From: Escherichia phage K1-5
Sequence record: NC_008152.1
Direction: 5' to 3' (one strand)
DNA length: 44,385 nucleotides
A program made the translations under genes and the position numbers. Positions 1 to 44,385 of the stretch are shown piece by piece. The notes under the pieces were generated by a model, which was given only the letters and a program-made list of their open reading frames with translations, was not told where the DNA came from and did no database searches. Position 1 is the first letter of the stretch; every line of letters begins with the position of its first letter.

Positions 1-234
1 TCGCCCTCGCCCTCGCCGGGTTGTCCCCATAGGGTGGCCTGAGGGAATCCGTCTTCGACGGGCAGGGCTGATGTACTCCTTGTCTAGTACAAGGGAGGCG
101 GAGGGAACGCCTAGGGAGGCCTAGGAATGGCTTAGTGGTGGACAAGGTGATTACCTTAGTGAAGCCTCTTAGTGCATTCCTGAGGCCATTCAGGGCGTTT
201 ATGAGGGATTGACAGGGTGTGAGGGCGTGGGCTA
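1..234. repeat. Left direct terminal repeat (234 bp), identical to 44152..44385
   Basis: First 234 nt (tcgccctcgccctcgccggg...gagggcgtgggcta) recur exactly at the right end in the same orientation; typical terminal redundancy of T7-like genomes. Confidence 0.95.
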
Positions 235-9617: not shown

Positions 9618-9770
9618 ATGACTAAGTTTACTATGCAAGACCTCATTAAATTACGTGATGAAATAGAATCACCGGAAGTTAATACAGAGTTTCACTACAT
9701 TGATCCACGAGATAAACGAGAGATTCCTGATTATCAGATTGAGACGGAGTTAATGTATGAAGATTATTGA
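9618..9770 (+). CDS. Small acidic protein (50 aa), below ORF-track cutoff
   Basis: GGGAGG RBS then ATG 9618; stop overlaps the DNA polymerase start. Confidence 0.4.
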   Translation: MTKFTMQDLIKLRDEIESPEVNTEFHYIDPRDKREIPDYQIETELMYEDY

Positions 9771-12297
9771 TTGGAAGAAGGAAGCAGAAGGCCGTATCCT
9801 AGTGATGGATGCGGAGGCTAAAGGCCTGCTGGGTGCTATCCGCTACGGTCATCGTGAAGATGTACACATTATTTGCTGCATGGACTTGCTCACCACTGAG
9901 GAGTTCCTCTTCTTCGACCCATATGAGATGCGTGACCCTGAAGCAAGGGAACACTTGAAAGAGTGGGAAGGCCATCAAGATGGGACCTTGGTTGATGGTG
10001 TTAACTTCCTAAAGCACTGTGAAGCCATCGTCTCACAGAACTTCCTAGGCTATGACGGGCTTCTCTTTGAGAAAGCCTTCCCTGACATCTGGAAGGGATT
10101 TAACTACACCGAGAGGCGCGGCAAGGGCAGACTACGTGCTGACTTGTGTCCGGTACGCGTCATGGATACGCTGGTCATGAGTCGCCTGTTAAACCCAGAT
10201 AGACGCCTTCCTCCGCAAGCATATGCCAAAGGTATGGGTAACGTTGCCCCTCACTCAATTGAGGCGCACGGCATTCGTATAGGCCGTTATAAGCCGGAGA
10301 ACGAGGATTGGTCTAAACTAACTGACCACATGGTACATCGTGTACGCGAGGACGTGGCGATAGGCCGTGACCTATTCCTCTGGCTATTTAACGGAGAATG
10401 GACGGAGCACAAACGCCGTGGCGTGAATAAACGCACTGGCCTAGGTATTGAGACAGCCTTCCACATGGAGTCCATTGTGACGCTGGAGATGAGCCGTCAG
10501 GCCGAGCGTGGATTCCGTCTGGATATAGATAAAGCATTAGCACGATGCGAGGAATTGGACGCTAAGATTGATGAGACAGTCGCAGCGTTCCGTCCGCACA
10601 TGCCTATGCGTATCAAGTCTAAACCTTTTAAACCGGAAGAAAAGAATGAAGTATGCCAACGCGCAAATGAGTATGGAGCTAGCAACAATATACCTACTGT
10701 CCTTGACCCCTCTCACTTTCTTCACGCAGAGAGACGAGGAGATCGCAAGACAGTATGGAGTGTCACTACTAAGTCTGGTGATTGGTCGGCTAGCGTCAAG
10801 AAAGACTTTCCTCACCTTAGAGGAAACCGTAATGACACGCCAAGTGTCAAGTGGATTGGCGCTTACTCGCCTGTTACTTTCGAAGAGATTCCCTTGGGTA
10901 ACAGGGATACAGTTAAGCAAGTGCTCTATGATTATGGATGGAAAGGTGTTGAATTTAACGATACCGAGCAAGCGCATCTCGATGAGCATGGCGTATTACC
11001 CAAGCCTTGGAGTGGGAAGATAAATGAAAAGTCCCTTACTTTATGGCAAGAGAGAGCCGCACGTGAAGGTAAAACAGTCCCTGATTGGTGCTTGGGTATC
11101 GCTGCATGGTACATACTCGTATCCCGTCGTGGTCAGATCCTCAACCGTGGTGACGTTGAAGCCTTCGACCAGAAGGGGGTGTGGCCTTCGCAAGCTGGTA
11201 TACGAAAGTGTCGCGGCCTTGTACCTGTAGCATTTAACAAGGAGTTAGGAATCAATGCGCAGCAATACTACGAAAGGTACGGATGCTGGCCTACGTCAGA
11301 CAAGGATGACGGAGAATGGCGTGTGCCAGCTATTGCTATTAGTATTGGAACTTCTACGTTCCGTATGCGTCATCGTAACGTGGTTAATATTCCTGCCCGT
11401 GGCTTGTATCCTTTACGTGATTTATTCATAGCAGGGAAAGGCAAGCTAATCCTTGGTTGTGACGGTGCAGGTCTTGAACTGCGTGTCCTGTCTCACTTCA
11501 TGAATGACCCTGAGTACCAAGAGATTGTACTGCACGGTGATATTCATACGCATAACCAGATGAAGGCTGGTCTTCCTAAGCGTGATATGGCGAAGACATT
11601 TATATATGCCTTCCTATATGGGTCTGGTATAGCTAACCTTGCAGCAGTATGTGGTGTTACTGAGGAAGAAATGGAGGAAGTTGTGGCAAGATTTGAGGTT
11701 GAACTACCATCTCTTGCACGTCTTCGTGAGAATGTTATCGCACAAGGTAACAAGTTTGGCTACCTACAAGCACCTGATGGTCATTGGGGTCGCATCCGTA
11801 TGTCTGGTGGTGAACTTAAAGAACACACTATGCTTAACGTACTACTCCAGATGACTGGTTCTCTGTGTATGAAATACGCATTGGTCAGAGCGTTTGCAGT
11901 GATGCGCAAGGAAGGTGTGGCCTTAGATAGCATGGGAAACCCTTGCGGTATAGCTAACGTGCACGATGAAATCCAGATGGAAGTCCCTGAAGATGAGGTC
12001 TTGTATCTCAACTACGACTTGCCTTTCACCTTAGAAGGGTTCGAAACAGAGAAGGCTGCTGTGAAAGCAGTGTTCGATGCAGAGGAGAAACGTGTTCATG
12101 TGGATTCTGAAGGACGTATGTGGTCTGCTGCAAATCTCGTTAGTGTTGATGCTGGTGTACTTCATTGCCAGCGTCGTTATCACCGTGCAGGGCATATCAT
12201 TGCCGACGCAATGACCTGGGCGGGTCAGTACCTGAAGATGCGTTGTCCGATGGCAGGTGAGTATAAGATTGGTGCAAGTTGGAAGGAAACACACTGA
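9757..12297 (+). CDS. Family A DNA polymerase with 3'-5' exonuclease domain (T7 gp5-like)
   Basis: 846 aa; exo motif VMDAEAKG, pol motif A CDGAGLELRVLSHF, motif B RDMAKTFIYAFLYGSG, motif C VHDEIQ. Confidence 0.97.
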   Translation: MKIIDWKKEAEGRILVMDAEAKGLLGAIRYGHREDVHIICCMDLLTTEEFLFFDPYEMRDPEAREHLKEWEGHQDGTLVDGVNFLKHCEAIVSQNFLGYDGLLFEKAFPDIWKGFNYTERRGKGRLRADLCPVRVMDTLVMSRLLNPDRRLPPQAYAKGMGNVAPHSIEAHGIRIGRYKPENEDWSKLTDHMVHRVREDVAIGRDLFLWLFNGEWTEHKRRGVNKRTGLGIETAFHMESIVTLEMSRQAERGFRLDIDKALARCEELDAKIDETVAAFRPHMPMRIKSKPFKPEEKNEVCQRANEYGASNNIPTVLDPSHFLHAERRGDRKTVWSVTTKSGDWSASVKKDFPHLRGNRNDTPSVKWIGAYSPVTFEEIPLGNRDTVKQVLYDYGWKGVEFNDTEQAHLDEHGVLPKPWSGKINEKSLTLWQERAAREGKTVPDWCLGIAAWYILVSRRGQILNRGDVEAFDQKGVWPSQAGIRKCRGLVPVAFNKELGINAQQYYERYGCWPTSDKDDGEWRVPAIAISIGTSTFRMRHRNVVNIPARGLYPLRDLFIAGKGKLILGCDGAGLELRVLSHFMNDPEYQEIVLHGDIHTHNQMKAGLPKRDMAKTFIYAFLYGSGIANLAAVCGVTEEEMEEVVARFEVELPSLARLRENVIAQGNKFGYLQAPDGHWGRIRMSGGELKEHTMLNVLLQMTGSLCMKYALVRAFAVMRKEGVALDSMGNPCGIANVHDEIQMEVPEDEVLYLNYDLPFTLEGFETEKAAVKAVFDAEEKRVHVDSEGRMWSAANLVSVDAGVLHCQRRYHRAGHIIADAMTWAGQYLKMRCPMAGEYKIGASWKETH

Positions 12298-14589: not shown

Positions 14590-14610
14590 ATTTACTGGAC
14601 ACTATAGAAG
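14590..14610 (+). promoter_or_regulatory. Phage RNAP promoter (perfect consensus)
   Basis: atttactggacactatagaag; 15 nt downstream of a palindrome variant. Confidence 0.8.
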
Positions 14611-14662: not shown

Positions 14663-15034
14663 ATGTTCAAGATTGAAACTATCGTAAACCGTGTTGTTAA
14701 AGGTGCTGCTCTGGTATCCGTTGAGTCTTTCATTATCGTCGATGAAACTGATCAACTGGTAGCTGGTACTAAGGCTTACGATACCCGTGAAGAAGCTCAG
14801 GCTAAGATTGACAGCATGGGTAACTTCGCTGCTGGTCTGGAGTTCGCTCGTGCTTGCTTCCCTGAGCAGGCTGACAAAGCTCAGATTGGTAAGGCTAATA
14901 TCGTAGCTGAATATCTGGATTGGGTTGCTGCTGGTAAACCAGTGAAAGAAGTTAAGGCTGCTGAAGAAGCTGAAGCTCCAGCAGAAGAAGTAGCTGCACC
15001 GGAAACTCCGGTAAGTGAAGAGGAAGAATTTTGA
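14663..15034 (+). CDS. Small acidic-tailed protein (123 aa)
   Basis: Consensus phage promoter upstream, AGGAGA RBS, strong hairpin terminator downstream; C-terminus ...VSEEEEF. Confidence 0.6.
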   Translation: MFKIETIVNRVVKGAALVSVESFIIVDETDQLVAGTKAYDTREEAQAKIDSMGNFAAGLEFARACFPEQADKAQIGKANIVAEYLDWVAAGKPVKEVKAAEEAEAPAEEVAAPETPVSEEEEF

Positions 15035-15093
15035 TAATAGCAGGTGTTGCCTCTGTTAGTCCTAGCTGACTATCACGCTCACCTCATCTAATG

Positions 15094-15126
15094 CCCTGTC
15101 TGCCTTAGTGTAGGCAGGGTCTTTTG
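15094..15126 (+). terminator. Hairpin plus T-run terminator
   Basis: ccctgtctgc-cttagt-gtaggcaggg followed by tcttttg; same architecture as the post-capsid terminator. Confidence 0.55.
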
Positions 15127-15151: not shown

Positions 15152-15424
15152 ATGCCGACTATTGAATCTCGAATTGAACTGGACATTAGCTACAATGCAA
15201 TCACCAGACAGTATATTGGGGTTGCCTATGATTACAAAACTGGTGAGAAGCTAGTGGAGGTGAGACAATGGGATGACTATTGGTTAAGACAGAACCTCCA
15301 TGATGCGGTGTCCTCCTTCCTGAAGGAGTGGCCTACATGCGACCAAACTTCGACTTCGGAGCTACAGTATCGGAAGACAATAACCTGTTGCTGTGGCCAA
15401 CTGAAGGTAATCGAATCGCTTTAA
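15152..15424 (+). CDS. Hypothetical protein (90 aa); 3' end overlaps exonuclease start
   Basis: GGAGAATG RBS-like; overlaps the 15337 start by about 88 nt in another frame. Confidence 0.4.
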   Translation: MPTIESRIELDISYNAITRQYIGVAYDYKTGEKLVEVRQWDDYWLRQNLHDAVSSFLKEWPTCDQTSTSELQYRKTITCCCGQLKVIESL

Positions 15425-16365
15425 TAGATGCTGATATGTTACCTTACATCATAGGGTATACAATCAGTGATATGACTTATGTACGAGCCACAACTCGTGT
15501 TAAGTCAGGGCAAGTCCCCTCAATCAAAGATACACCTGAGTGTAAGCAAGCGTGTGACCGTGTGAACTCCTTGCTTAACTCTTGGGTGTATGCAGCAGAA
15601 TGTGATGCAGCTAAGTTGTTCATGACGAAATCAGAAGCTAACTTCCGTGTCCGCCTAGCATTCACCAAGCCTTATAAAGGTCAACGTAAGACCGAGAAGC
15701 CTCCATTCTTCTATGAATTGCGAGAGCATCTCTTAGAGGTTCACGGTGCAATCTTGGCAGATGGAGAGGAAGCAGATGACCTCATGAGTATCGCACAATG
15801 GGACAGCCACCGCCGCTTCCAGCAAGATACAGGTAACGAGTTCCCTATCGGTAGTCCAGAGCATAAAGCATTCTCTGATACTTGCATCGTTTCCTTGGAT
15901 AAGGATTTGATGATTGTTCCCGGTTGGCATCTACAGCCGGGTCAAGAGAAGAAATGGGTAGAGCCTATGGGTTGGCTTGAGCTACGCCGTAAGGCTAATG
16001 GGCAAGTCAAAGATCTAAAAGGTGCTGGCCTCATGTTCCACTATGCACAGATGATTATCGGTGATGATATTGATAACTATGCTGGCATACCAGGTCGTGG
16101 TGCTAAATATGCCTATGATCTTCTCAAAGATTGTAAGACAGAGAAAGAGTTGTACATGGCAGTGCTGGGTGCTTACAAGGCTAAGTTCGGGCATGGACAA
16201 GTTAAAATTAAGAATTACCGAGGTGGTTATCGTATCGGCAAAGCCTTTGACCTAATGCTTGAGTGTGGTCGCTTATCTCACATGGCAAGATTCAAGGGTG
16301 ATATATGGCGAGCCGATAAGAACCCAATCTTGTGGGGAGATGATGCGGAATGGTTAGCAAATTAA
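15337..16365 (+). CDS. 5'-3' exonuclease (FEN-like, T7 gp6-like)
   Basis: Track ORF 15328 (GTG); ATG 15337 with GGAG RBS; motifs LIDADMLPY, SLDKDL, GDDIDNYAGIPGRG. Confidence 0.85.
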   Translation: MRPNFDFGATVSEDNNLLLWPTEGNRIALIDADMLPYIIGYTISDMTYVRATTRVKSGQVPSIKDTPECKQACDRVNSLLNSWVYAAECDAAKLFMTKSEANFRVRLAFTKPYKGQRKTEKPPFFYELREHLLEVHGAILADGEEADDLMSIAQWDSHRRFQQDTGNEFPIGSPEHKAFSDTCIVSLDKDLMIVPGWHLQPGQEKKWVEPMGWLELRRKANGQVKDLKGAGLMFHYAQMIIGDDIDNYAGIPGRGAKYAYDLLKDCKTEKELYMAVLGAYKAKFGHGQVKIKNYRGGYRIGKAFDLMLECGRLSHMARFKGDIWRADKNPILWGDDAEWLAN

Positions 16366-16760
16366 AATCATCGGAGGTGGCAGCTTATAAGAAGGAATTG
16401 CTAGATAAGCAAGGATGGAAATGCCCTCTGTGTGGCGGCAGTCTCAAAGCTGTCACACCTGTAAACCGTGTACTTGACCATGACCATGAGACAGGATTCT
16501 GCCGCGCTGTTGTATGCCGAGGCTGCAATGGTGCGGAAGGGAAGATTAAGGGTGTTATCTCTGGTTATGGTAAGGCTGGTAACAACCGTTACTTCCAGCT
16601 TCAATGGTTAGAGCGACTATATGAATACTGGAAGTTACATAGTACGCCTCAGACAGATAAGTTATATCACAAACATCAAACGGAGGCAGAGAAGCGCGAG
16701 GCTAAGAACCGTAAGGCACGCCTTGCTTATGCAAGAAAGAAGGAGGTTAAAGTTGGGTAA
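16350..16760 (+). CDS. Endonuclease VII-like junction-resolving nuclease
   Basis: 136 aa; CPLCGG...LDHDHETGFCR...CRGCNG matches the T4 endonuclease VII zinc/His-metal signature. Confidence 0.8.
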   Translation: MVSKLKSSEVAAYKKELLDKQGWKCPLCGGSLKAVTPVNRVLDHDHETGFCRAVVCRGCNGAEGKIKGVISGYGKAGNNRYFQLQWLERLYEYWKLHSTPQTDKLYHKHQTEAEKREAKNRKARLAYARKKEVKVG

Positions 16761-17760
16761 GCTGCGCAGCTTGTACAAAGACTCCGAGGTACTTGATGCA
16801 ATCGAGCAAGCTACCGACGAGAAAGGTAATGTTAACTACAATGAGATGGCACGTGTATTATCGTGTCATACTGTGGGTAAGAAGATTACCCGCCAGTTGG
16901 CTCGATACTGGCATGGTCAATTCAAGAAGACCAAGAAGAATGGTGATTACTACCAGACCCTTCTGCAAGAAGATAAGCGTATCAAAGAAGAGCGTAAGCT
17001 CAGGACTCCTGACCGCTACGAGGATTTGGCTATTGTGCCATTGCCTGACTCGCCTCATCGAAGTGTACTGGTGATCCCTGATACTCATGCACCTTATGAG
17101 CACCCAGATACCCTAGAGTTCCTTGCAGCCGTGGCAGCACGTTACCGTCCAGACACAGTGGTACACCTAGGAGATGAGGCAGACAAACATGCCCTGTCAT
17201 TCCACGATTCGGACCCAAATCTGGATAGTGCTGGCATGGAGTTAGAGAAGGCTCGTATCTTCATGCACAAATTGCACAAGATGTTCCCTGTGATGCGCCT
17301 GTGTCACTCTAACCACGGCTCTATGCACTTCCGTAAGGCAAGCGCCAAAGGCATCCCTGTGCAATACCTGCGCACCTATCGTGAAGTCTTCTTCCCGCAG
17401 GGAGGTGGCGACCAGTGGGATTGGCAACATACGCACGTCCTTGAGTTGCCGAATGGTGAACAAGTGGCATTCAAGCATCAACCTGCTGGCTCTGTCCTAG
17501 CAGATGCAGCGCATGAGCGTATGAACCTTGTGTGTGGTCACTTGCACGGTAAGATGTCTGTGGAGTACGCACGTAATACACATGAACAGTATTGGGCTGT
17601 GCAAGGTGGCTGCTTAATTGATGAGTCATCCCGTGCATTTGCCTATGGTCGTGAGTCTAAATACAAGCCAGCATTAGGTTGTGTGGTCATTCTGGAGGGT
17701 GTGCCTCACATTGTCCCGATGCAAACCAATAGCGACAACCGTTGGATTGGCAAGATTTAG
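16753..17760 (+). CDS. Calcineurin-like metallophosphoesterase
   Basis: Track ORF 16621; likely TTG 16753 start 6 nt after AGGAGG; motifs VIPDTHAPYEHPD, HLGDEAD, CHSNHGSMH, CGHLHG. Confidence 0.7.
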   Translation: MGKLRSLYKDSEVLDAIEQATDEKGNVNYNEMARVLSCHTVGKKITRQLARYWHGQFKKTKKNGDYYQTLLQEDKRIKEERKLRTPDRYEDLAIVPLPDSPHRSVLVIPDTHAPYEHPDTLEFLAAVAARYRPDTVVHLGDEADKHALSFHDSDPNLDSAGMELEKARIFMHKLHKMFPVMRLCHSNHGSMHFRKASAKGIPVQYLRTYREVFFPQGGGDQWDWQHTHVLELPNGEQVAFKHQPAGSVLADAAHERMNLVCGHLHGKMSVEYARNTHEQYWAVQGGCLIDESSRAFAYGRESKYKPALGCVVILEGVPHIVPMQTNSDNRWIGKI

Positions 17761-17775
17761 TTGACACTATAGAAC
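17755..17775 (+). promoter_or_regulatory. Phage RNAP promoter variant
   Basis: atttagttgacactatagaac; overlaps the phosphoesterase stop codon. Confidence 0.45.
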
Positions 17776-17860
17776 AAAGGGCTAGGTAAGACTTTATCGG
17801 CTGGCGTATCCAAATGATATTGCACTAGCCCTTGATTGTATAGTGAATGGAGGATTCAAT

Positions 17861-18364
17861 ATGTCACACTATGAATGTAAGAAGTGTCATAAGCGTTATG
17901 ATTACTGTACTTGTGGTCAAGAGAAAACATCTTTTAAAGTTGGAGACAAGGTATTTCGTAATGAAAAAGATTCGATTCCTTGGAATCAATACTGCAAAGA
18001 AGCTGGTATTGACCCTGATAGCCCTGTAACCATAGATGATATTGATGGCATTAACTTGTGCTTTCGTGAGGTGAGGGGTACAGGTTGGGATTCCAAAAAA
18101 TTCAAACTTGCATCTGATAAGTTAGACAACAATATGGTAATTAAGCCTAAGCACTACGAGTTCTTTGATGGCGTAGAGGCAATCACTATCATTGCCCGCA
18201 GTATGACCGAGAAGCAATTCGCTGGCTATTGCATGGGTAATGCTTTGAAGTACCGTCTACGTGCAGGTAAGAAGTTCAACACTGAAGAAGACCTGAAGAA
18301 AGCAGATTACTACAAAGAGTTATTCCAGAAGCATCGTCACGAATGTATTGATGAGGATATTTGA
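17861..18364 (+). CDS. Hypothetical protein (167 aa) with Cys-rich N-terminus
   Basis: Track ORF 17843; ATG 17861 after GGAGGA RBS; CKKCHKRYDYCTC. Confidence 0.55.
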   Translation: MSHYECKKCHKRYDYCTCGQEKTSFKVGDKVFRNEKDSIPWNQYCKEAGIDPDSPVTIDDIDGINLCFREVRGTGWDSKKFKLASDKLDNNMVIKPKHYEFFDGVEAITIIARSMTEKQFAGYCMGNALKYRLRAGKKFNTEEDLKKADYYKELFQKHRHECIDEDI

Positions 18365-18365
18365 T

Positions 18366-19313
18366 ATGAATATCTTTGAGTTCCTAGGTCTTCCAGAAGA
18401 CCACCGCAATCACCCATTCATGCTGGTGAAGCATCGCGGTGAAGTTCCTGAGAAGAAATTAACTTTTCCATGTTATGCACAGGTGAAACGAGATGGTATC
18501 TTTTCTGCTGTTGTTGTTCGCACTGATGGTGTCGTTGGCATTTTTGGTCGCACTGGTAAGAAATTGGCAAACACTGAAGGACTCGAACAAGCCTTTGCTA
18601 CCTTTCCGGTTGGCATTTATCTTGGTGAGCTTCAGTCTATGGCCATTGATATCTACCTTGAGGCAATCTCTGGGGTTGTGAACCCCAATCGCACTGAGCC
18701 ACTTGATTTCATAGGCCAGCAGATTAAAGACAACCTGTATATCGACTTCTTCGATATGTTAACTATTAAGGCATTCCATGATGGATTCACTGATGTTTCT
18801 TATCTCAAACGTTACGATGCTTTACATCGTCGTATCGGCGCTCATCTTAGCGGGTGCAACGCTATCCTTCCTATCACTCCTTGCCATAATGAGCGAGAAG
18901 TTGAAGCGTTTGCGCAAGAGCAAATAGATGCAGGACGTGAGGGTGCTGTATTCAAACTGGACTGCGATTATGAAGCAGGACACAAAGGTTATCGTCAGAC
19001 TAAAGAAGTCCGTAAGGTAACCTATGACCTTACTTGTATTGGCTTTGAAGAAGGTAAAGGCAAATACAAAGGTAAGGTAGCTAACCTCATTTTCAAATGG
19101 AAAGGAGGCAAGACAATCAAAGCTATGTTAGGTAAGGGGTGGACTCATGCAGATGCAGAGCAGATGTTCCACGACATTAAACATGGTGGACGATTGAATG
19201 TCATTGGTAAAATCTTTGAAGTCAAAGGTCTTCAGGATTCAAGCAAGGGCAACATTCGTCTGCCCAAAGCGGGAGAATTAAGACATGACAAAGATGAACC
19301 AGATTTCTTTTGA
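18366..19313 (+). CDS. ATP-dependent DNA ligase
   Basis: Track ORF 18348 (TTG); ATG 18366 after GAGGA; adenylation motif KRDG (KxDG), EGAVFK, Lys-rich C-terminal motif. Confidence 0.8.
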   Translation: MNIFEFLGLPEDHRNHPFMLVKHRGEVPEKKLTFPCYAQVKRDGIFSAVVVRTDGVVGIFGRTGKKLANTEGLEQAFATFPVGIYLGELQSMAIDIYLEAISGVVNPNRTEPLDFIGQQIKDNLYIDFFDMLTIKAFHDGFTDVSYLKRYDALHRRIGAHLSGCNAILPITPCHNEREVEAFAQEQIDAGREGAVFKLDCDYEAGHKGYRQTKEVRKVTYDLTCIGFEEGKGKYKGKVANLIFKWKGGKTIKAMLGKGWTHADAEQMFHDIKHGGRLNVIGKIFEVKGLQDSSKGNIRLPKAGELRHDKDEPDFF

Positions 19314-19510: not shown

Positions 19511-19633
19511 ATGCTTGAGATGATTCTCAAGCCTTCTTCTCCTAAGGTGACTAAGACTCATGAAGAGTTAATCGTTGATGAAGTTAAGCGTTACATCATG
19601 GATTGTGTCAGAGCACAACTGGTGGTCCAATGA
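19511..19633 (+). CDS. Small protein (40 aa; track ORF from 19451)
   Basis: GAAGGA RBS 6 nt upstream of ATG 19511. Confidence 0.3.
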   Translation: MLEMILKPSSPKVTKTHEELIVDEVKRYIMDCVRAQLVVQ

Positions 19634-20157
19634 TACGTCCAGCCTCCTTCCTAGATATTCCTGAGATTATAAACCTTGGGAATAAATATGTGGAAGAGGA
19701 AGTCAAGGTTGTAGCCCACCACTCAGCCTCATGGAATGCAGAACAAAGTGCCATAACCTTTGTGCATCTCTTAATAGAGACCCACCACTCAGCCTCATGG
19801 AATGCAGAACAAAGTGCACATAACCTTTGTGCATCTCTTAGTAGAGAAGATTTATCCCTATGGGTTGCTGTAGATGAAGGGCAGATTGTAGGGTTCCTGT
19901 GGGCTGGCTATCACGAGTTGGCCCCTTGGACACCTGTAAGAGTTGCCTCTGACATTCTCTTTTATATTATACCAGAGAGGCGAGGAACACTACTTGGTAT
20001 GCGTCTCATCAAAGCCCTAAAGCAATGGGCTAGTGATAATGAATGCTCTGAGGTTCGCCTGTCTATCGCCTCTGGTATTAATGAAGAACGTGTCGGACGT
20101 ATGTATAAGCGACTTGGCTTTGAACCGTTTGGCACTGTGTATAACCTGAAGTTCTAA
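19630..20157 (+). CDS. GNAT-family N-acetyltransferase-like protein with an internal 22-aa tandem duplication
   Basis: Track ORF 19603; C-terminal IIPERRGTLLGMRLIKAL...SGINEERVGRMYKRLGFEP fits the GNAT motif A/B pattern; duplicated HHSASWNAEQSA block. Confidence 0.55.
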   Translation: MIRPASFLDIPEIINLGNKYVEEEVKVVAHHSASWNAEQSAITFVHLLIETHHSASWNAEQSAHNLCASLSREDLSLWVAVDEGQIVGFLWAGYHELAPWTPVRVASDILFYIIPERRGTLLGMRLIKALKQWASDNECSEVRLSIASGINEERVGRMYKRLGFEPFGTVYNLKF

Positions 20158-44151: not shown

Positions 44152-44385
44152 TCGCCCTCGCCCTCGCCGGGTTGTCCCCATAGGGTGGCCTGAGGGAATC
44201 CGTCTTCGACGGGCAGGGCTGATGTACTCCTTGTCTAGTACAAGGGAGGCGGAGGGAACGCCTAGGGAGGCCTAGGAATGGCTTAGTGGTGGACAAGGTG
44301 ATTACCTTAGTGAAGCCTCTTAGTGCATTCCTGAGGCCATTCAGGGCGTTTATGAGGGATTGACAGGGTGTGAGGGCGTGGGCTA
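44152..44385. repeat. Right direct terminal repeat (234 bp)
   Basis: Exact copy of 1..234 read by eye; window ends exactly at the repeat end. Confidence 0.95.

Follow-up and report, generated by a model that had tools for sequence, protein, structure and literature searches.

What substrate does a metallophosphoesterase (MPE) meet when its gene lies among the nuclease genes of a podophage? The question is raised by gene 22 of Escherichia phage K1-5, which occupies positions 16753-17760 on the + strand of sequence record NC_008152.1 (44,385 nucleotides in all; this whole stretch is the window analysed here) and encodes a protein of 335 amino acids, gp22. The gene is defined by its open reading frame (ORF), by a match to the phage protein family PHROG 221, and by exact identity of the 335-residue product to the protein record AAR90064.1/YP_654123.1, which is named 'Phosphoesterase' or 'metallo-phosphoesterase'. 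Its identity is already known: GenBank, RefSeq, UniProt and PHROGs all list it as a metallo-phosphoesterase. As to what the enzyme does, we put the chances at about even that gp22 is a DNA-directed nuclease or phosphodiesterase belonging to a module for replication, recombination and host-DNA breakdown.

The MPE catalytic core (residues 101-335; 17053-17757, + strand) contains a complete set of motifs, all on the + strand: motif I, D110-T-H112 (17080-17088), motif II, G140-D141-E-A-D144-K-H146 (17170-17190), motif III, S186-N187-H188-G189 (17308-17319), motif IV, H242 (17476-17478), and motif V, G262-H263-L-H265 (17536-17547). The numbered residues of motifs I (29/29), II and III are invariant in an alignment of 29 close homologues (48-87% identity), and those of motifs IV and V are invariant both there and in a distant alignment of 70 core-only relatives (A3). 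Among these 70 distant cores D141, H242, H263 and H265 do not vary, and D110 and G140 hardly do so. In the 29-sequence alignment motif II is followed by an invariant loop, H146...G161 (HALSFHDSDPNLDSAG), which is not common to Bxb1 gp47, a mycobacteriophage relative discussed below. Motif III is a variant, reading SNHG where GNH(D/E) is canonical: its Asn-His dyad does not vary, but Ser stands for Gly and the position after the dyad is not acidic. The match to Pfam PF00149 covers residues 105-213 only and barely passes the gathering cut-off (21.6 versus 21.5 bits), and the match to PHROG 221 'metallo-phosphoesterase' aligns residues 1-334 with profile positions 16-358 of 367 (E 3.3e-105). Judged by these motifs and profiles, gp22 is a member of the calcineurin-like metallophosphoesterase superfamily with an intact active site. 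A preliminary description of this DNA had called it a metallophosphoesterase with all four calcineurin-like phosphoesterase motifs (D-x-H, GD, GNH, GH-x-H); every site is present, except that the third reads SNH, and the catalytic residues are invariant in the 29 homologues. The ratio of nonsynonymous to synonymous substitution rates (dN/dS) of gene 22 is 0.022 against phage AAPEc6, 0.016 against K1E and 0.051 against SP6, a sign of strong purifying selection. Because the metal ligands and the catalytic histidine are invariant and dN/dS lies at 0.02-0.05, catalysis itself is under selection.

The hypothesis that this catalysis is directed at DNA rests on a tie to two studied mycobacteriophage proteins, on recurrent fusions to helix-turn-helix (HTH) domains, and on inteins in the catalytic motifs of relatives. 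With regard to the first, gp47 of mycobacteriophage Bxb1 matches PHROG 221 over profile positions 110-363 (E 4.5e-116) and is recovered by a HMMER profile built from 143 cores of the family (43 bits, E 2e-15). Profile-profile comparison of A3 with gp47 by hhalign gives a probability of 97.5% (E 6.7e-12) over 199 columns, spanning all motifs as well as a C-terminal GCLID...AFAYG region. The same A3 profile, searched with HMMER against the PDB, finds no chain at E<=10; the gp22 core is thus nearer to gp47 than to any solved MPE, on a comparison that is indirect (hhalign for gp47, HMMER for the PDB). These matches place gp22 together with Bxb1 gp47 in the phage-restricted clade PHROG 221. Bxb1 gp47 has been reported as necessary for the replication of phage DNA and as showing weak exonuclease activity; it is also the recombination directionality factor (RDF) of Bxb1, acting by protein-protein interaction with the serine integrase. 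A cluster-A relative, A10ZJ24 gp48, was aligned with gp47 in its own paper, and it is through this alignment that it is tied to gp22. It acts as a phosphodiesterase and as a DNase and breaks down host DNA, the replication of phage DNA in M. tuberculosis depends on it, and its D10, D41 and H175 mutants are inactive (PMC12287305). In gp47, D10 and D41 are the motif I and motif II residues, and hhalign pairs these two motifs with those of gp22 (D110, D141); H175 of gp48 would correspond to the GHxH motif. The genomic setting is alike as well, the MPE gene of these mycobacteriophages lying in a replication block among genes for a family A polymerase, a primase, endonuclease VII and an exonuclease. 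As an aside on annotation, RefSeq Bxb1 (L010, 9876-10788) labels gp46 as the RDF and gp47 only as 'metallo-phosphoesterase', while the literature has gp47 as the RDF, so these labels look wrong.

The second line concerns the part of gp22 that gp47 lacks. Residues 1-98 (16753-17046, + strand) form a basic N-terminal helical domain (pI, i.e., isoelectric point, 9.2), with helices at 10-20, 29-37, 47-57 and 71-80, which is well predicted and in which L36, L49, Y52 and W53 are invariant. Pfam returns nothing significant for these residues, and hhalign against the HTH domains of relatives gives weak probabilities of 0.2-2%; the domain may be an HTH/Myb-like three-helix module that binds DNA or a partner. 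In the wider family such domains are recognisable: of 59 further representatives whose N-terminus is extended, Pfam detects HTH_23 in 13, HTH_28 and HTH_29 in 8 each and HTH_38 in 5, as well as the homing-endonuclease repeat HNH_repeat in 3, and HTH_24 lies above its cut-off in the homologue P0204. The MPE core has thus been joined repeatedly to DNA-binding modules, and it also stands by itself (~235 aa) in many family representatives. The two-domain form of gp22 is shared by gp19 of the KP34-like phage phiKpS2. Thirdly, four metagenome homologues (P0121, P0168, P0132 and P0165) bear inteins. In P0121, P0168 and P0132 they interrupt motif II directly behind GDE, begin with C and end in ...N, followed by C, and in one of the four an intein with a LAGLIDADG domain follows DLH of motif I.

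The distribution of the family is consistent with a role in phage DNA metabolism that is widely shared. It comprises 2,805 proteins at E<=1e-3 when clustered at 90% identity, with 1,700 representatives in clusters at 50% identity, and tblastn finds homologues in 641 phage records; of those listed, the majority are genomes of ~40-48 kb. The carriers whose taxonomy was checked are mostly Autographiviridae, including SP6-, KP34- and PhiM1-like phages and phages of Aeromonas, Vibrio and Pseudomonas; a homologue is also present in a Pelagibacter phage that is not assigned to any family. In 185,579 species genomes a pattern-limited scan picked up six loci, all on contigs of metagenome-assembled genomes (the longest being 41.7 and 45.7 kb), and no cellular homologue, and the family appears to be restricted to phages. 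At identities of at least 60%, 163 records contain the MPE and 150 the DNA polymerase, and these identity-band counts suggest that gene 22 is a core gene of its subfamily. The order exonuclease-endonuclease VII-MPE, which is that of K1-5, is found again in Molineuxvirinae, Colwellvirinae and Melnykvirinae, where starts and stops often overlap and a nucleotide kinase-like gene usually comes next; in Drulisvirus the MPE gene comes after the DNA polymerase gene and one small ORF. T7 (NC_001604), by contrast with these phages, has no homologue of gp22 detectable by tblastn (best E 1.7) or by the family-core profile run on its six-frame ORFs (nothing at E<=10), in agreement with the preliminary description, and its biology is therefore uninformative on gene 22.

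On the DNA-directed reading, the core of gp22, with its binuclear metal centre, would work as a Mn2+/Mg2+-dependent exo- and/or endonuclease. The protein would be made together with the other class II DNA-metabolism proteins and, in concert with endonuclease VII and the 5'-3' exonuclease, would attack host DNA, intermediates of replication and recombination, or both, the N-terminal domain tethering it to DNA or to a replisome partner. The deoxynucleoside monophosphates (dNMPs) so released could feed the adjacent nucleotide kinase and in this way support efficient phage DNA replication. The analysis shows the gene, its start, motifs, fold, purifying selection, clade and synteny; that DNA is the substrate, and that the enzyme serves replication and host-DNA breakdown, is inferred from these. 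The preliminary description was right about the MPE identity but held that the sequence does not discriminate between possible roles; the comparative data (the gp47 clade, the HTH fusions and the synteny) do favour a DNA-directed nuclease or phosphodiesterase.

Several points weigh against this interpretation. T7 breaks down host DNA with gp3 and gp6 alone, so that an additional nuclease is not obviously required. The relationship of gp22 to gp47 is remote (~23% identity), function can change within MPE clades, and gp47 carries Q where gp22 has the motif I histidine. The exonuclease activity of gp47 is weak, with contamination not excluded by its authors, and gp47 is said to lack phosphoesterase activity (PMC12287305). 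Finally, the literature on SP6-, K1-5- and KP34-like phages yielded genome annotations only, with no functional study found, and no biochemical or genetic data in it for any Autographiviridae member of the gp22 family.

Structure prediction confirms the fold. The AlphaFold model of gp22 (predicted local distance difference test score, pLDDT, 83.5, low at residues 145-150) has an MPE fold. The highest fold-comparison scores go to MJ0936 (14.2), YfcE (14.0) and PolD DP1 (13.3), followed by the inactive polymerase B subunits (11.5-12.5), LpxH (12.0) and Mre11/SbcD (11.2-11.5), and then by the PPP phosphatases (9-10), Rv0805 (9.6) and the PnkP phosphatase domain (9.0). PDB sequence searches with gp22 alone and with two family profiles (A1 and A3) find no MPE structure at E<=10; there is therefore no solved close relative from which the substrate could be inferred. 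YfcE and MJ0936, whose physiological substrates are poorly defined, are cellular enzymes with 11-13% identity to gp22 and no sequence-level match, and they are without its N-terminal domain and family-specific loops. Mre11/SbcD and PolD DP1 likewise show no sequence-level similarity to gp22 in these PDB searches, and in the model neither a Mre11 capping domain nor a DP1 OB domain is seen. Among the replication-block genes and the ORFs scanned with Pfam and PHROGs, up to ~27 kb, no Rad50/SbcC-like or DP2-like partner was noticed.

Given that the nearest folds, MJ0936 and YfcE, are generic phosphodiesterases, the likeliest alternative is that gp22 hydrolyses small nucleotides as a phosphodiesterase or pyrophosphatase, its targets being the cyclic (oligo)nucleotide signals of CBASS, Pycsar, Thoeris or type III CRISPR systems, or else cAMP or Ap4A. 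We consider this unlikely, and nothing positive supports it. The gene is core-like and syntenic over several subfamilies and many host genera, while anti-defence genes are usually patchy; it is always found in the replication and nuclease block, and fusions to HTH domains are hard to square with a soluble nucleotide substrate. Nor does gp22 have a sequence or profile match to class III cyclic-nucleotide phosphodiesterases or known anti-signalling enzymes, which are not its best structural match either, and PADLOC gives no relevant match, its one hit being to a type II restriction-enzyme model (E 0.048). Hydrolysis of cyclic-nucleotide immune signals, one of the roles put forward in the preliminary description, accordingly finds no support from either the PADLOC result or the core-like rather than accessory character of the gene.

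Ranking below it is the possibility that gp22 heals ends, as a 3'-phosphatase or 2',3'-cyclic phosphodiesterase resembling the PnkP phosphatase domain or PdeM, and so readies DNA or RNA ends for the ligase encoded nearby. PnkP and lambda-phosphatase-like folds score below the nuclease-type MPEs, and linkage to a ligase gene is not conserved, none being present in the Drulisvirus or Ahphunavirus stretches shown. PdeM itself (TIGR04123, ligase-associated DNA damage response endonuclease), tried as a candidate, reaches only 19.4 bits against a NCBIfam cut-off of 150, over 33 residues near motifs I-II. Moreover, the MPE-bearing relatives CF7 and phiKpS2 carry a separate PNKP 3'-phosphatase domain of HAD type, so that in those phages another protein already covers end healing. 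The genes in question, phiKpS2 gp30 (L002, 9562-10056) and CF7 gp06 (L011, 3606-4157), are called 'polynucleotide kinase' and contain the HAD phosphatase domain of PNKP only, with no kinase domain; gp06 of Aeromonas phage CF7 adjoins the MPE gene, and gp30 of Klebsiella phage phiKpS2 lies further downstream, after endonuclease VII. All this makes an end-healing function for gp22 rather improbable.

A 3'-phosphatase/5'-kinase gene is also found alongside the corresponding slot of Erwinia phage vB_EamP-S2, a member of the same subfamily, in which the position after the exonuclease and endonuclease genes is taken by a protein of 374 amino acids (L016, 5264-6388). Its layout resembles that of gp22: an N-terminal domain, here an HTH (GerE, 26.3 bits; cut-off 23.5), precedes an MPE-like core, the latter assigned from a sub-threshold match to Metallophos_2 (E 0.05) and from motifs read by eye, and it belongs to PHROG 704 'DNA repair exonuclease'. 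No homology to gp22 is detectable with BLASTP or hhalign. Because the two are not detectably similar, the Erwinia slot suggests non-orthologous displacement.

In another alternative, gp22 would resemble the DP1 subunit of archaeal PolD and be a 3'-5' exonuclease that proofreads in trans for the phage polymerase, a role proposed earlier for Bxb1 gp47. This is improbable for K1-5: its DNA polymerase (9757-12297) aligns with T7 gp5 and has, by eye, DEDD motifs of its own (MDAEA, NFLGYD and the H-x4-D of HRVRED), and we set trans-proofreading aside on that account. The Bxb1 polymerase, too, has a 3'-5' exonuclease domain (PF01612, Pfam), the gp22 model shows no OB domain of DP1 style, and we know of no DP2-type partner. 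Still less probable is that gp22 is a Ser/Thr protein phosphatase of PPP type, 'PP2A-like' or lambda phosphatase-like as some records name it, in view of the lower scores of the PPP folds and the absence from gp22 of the PPP signatures GDxHG, GDxVDRG and GNHE. Least probable of all is a mainly non-catalytic function as a regulator or protein cofactor: gp47 does act as an RDF through its contact with the integrase, and an HTH-like N-terminal domain could regulate transcription, but the catalytic residues are invariant in the 29 close sequences and invariant or nearly so in the 70 distant ones, inteins home to the catalytic motifs, and in the part of the K1-5 ORFs scanned no integrase-like ORF of the kind gp47 works with was seen.

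The DNA-directed nuclease or phosphodiesterase thus remains the reading we prefer, and the immediate neighbourhood of gene 22 may be described with it in mind. Upstream lie, both on the + strand, a 5'-3' exonuclease of T7 gp6 type (15328-16365; a sub-threshold match to Pfam 5_3_exonuc, and the label 'exonuclease' in AAPEc6 and SP6) and an endonuclease VII, or resolvase (16350-16760; PF02945, E 1.5e-12), the end of which overlaps the start of gene 22 by 8 nt, giving the gene order exonuclease, endonuclease VII, MPE. Downstream on the same strand follow a T7 gp1.7-like nucleotide kinase with a DUF3310 domain (17843-18364; PF11753, E 3e-24; PHROG 1689/2585 'nucleotide kinase') and an ATP-dependent DNA ligase (18348-19313; Pfam DNA_ligase_A_M and OB_2). 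These neighbours agree with the earlier placement of the gene in a DNA-metabolism block; its location between resolvase and ligase holds as an order, with the nucleotide kinase gene intervening before the ligase.

Transcription of the trio can be predicted from the promoters. A search for SP6-type promoters (ATTTAGKTGACACTATAGAA, up to 3 mismatches) finds 10 in the genome where 0.01 would be expected by chance, starting on the + strand at 2014, 2323, 9010, 12580, 13352, 14590, 17755, 22852, 37593 and 39265. The sole perfect match among them, ATTTAGTTGACACTATAGAA at 17755-17774 (+, zero mismatches), overlaps the stop codon of gene 22, and the MPE gene is therefore the last one before a new transcription start. 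The nearest phage promoter upstream is at 14590-14609 (+, pattern match with 2 mismatches), from which the exonuclease, endonuclease VII and MPE genes are predicted to be transcribed.

With regard to the limits of the gene, the full ORF of its frame (16621-17760, +) is longer at the 5' side than gene 22, which starts at a TTG at 16753 and stops at a TAG at 17758-17760. A Shine-Dalgarno sequence, AAGGAGG, was read at 16740-16746 (+), 6 nt before this TTG. The same TTG start is annotated in AAPEc6, SP6 (gene 23) and K1E (gp22), and the homologues begin with MGKLR or MAKLR. As the placement of AAGGAGG, the shared annotated TTG and the homologue N-termini agree, the real start is the TTG at 16753. 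The gene 22 region is 96-98% identical in nucleotide sequence to Vectrevirus genomes such as AAPEc6. SP6 gene 23 and K1E gp22 are orthologues of equal length, start codon and position, and orthologues differ in name alone, being called 'phosphoesterase', 'PP2A-like protein', 'hypothetical protein' or, in the SP6 record, 'metalloprotease'. The last label, given to SP6 gene 23 (L013, 4427-5434) in AY288927.2, looks wrong.

Some further features of the window were observed in passing. The gp1.7-like kinase is a single ORF of 173 aa in K1-5, with an N-terminal CxxC...CxC cluster, while two overlapping coding sequences are annotated for it in AAPEc6 (L001, 10862-11364), which suggests that the AAPEc6 record has a frameshift or that its annotation was split. 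A terminator-like hairpin (15093-15120), with an 11-bp stem and a T-rich tail, lies between the ORFs 14663-15034 and 15152-15424; the second of these, a small ORF assigned to PHROG 10319 'DNA repair protein', overlaps the start of the exonuclease gene. Beyond the ligase gene, the ORF of a GNAT acetyltransferase (19603-20157) contains a 66-nt imperfect tandem duplication (19715-19847) by which the ORF gains 22 codons and a second copy of the peptide HHSASWNAEQSA; neither AAPEc6 nor SP6 has this duplication, which may be genuine or may have arisen in assembly. At the two ends of the window (1-234 and 44152-44385) stands a direct terminal repeat of 234 bp, exact in sequence, which together with the exact protein match on a 44,385-bp contig shows the window to be the complete linear genome of K1-5.

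Members of the gene 22 family occur in many therapeutic phages of Klebsiella, E. coli, Proteus and Aeromonas, and what would matter is function rather than identity. The link to gp47 and gp48 provides a testable DNA-nuclease hypothesis; it also counts against naming the protein 'PP2A-like' or 'metalloprotease', as some records do. A more far-reaching proposal, which we advance tentatively and regard as doubtful at this stage, would make gp22 an HTH-tethered nuclease and a core, unrecognised part of the replication and host-takeover machinery of non-T7 Autographiviridae (SP6-, KP34- and PhiM1-like phages and their relatives). In this scenario, early destruction of the host chromosome, as reported for A10ZJ24 gp48, might silence inducible defences, and on some hosts the phage might therefore need the enzyme to replicate its DNA. 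If this were true, podophage gp22, Bxb1 gp47 and their intein-bearing relatives would constitute one functional family of phage replication nucleases.

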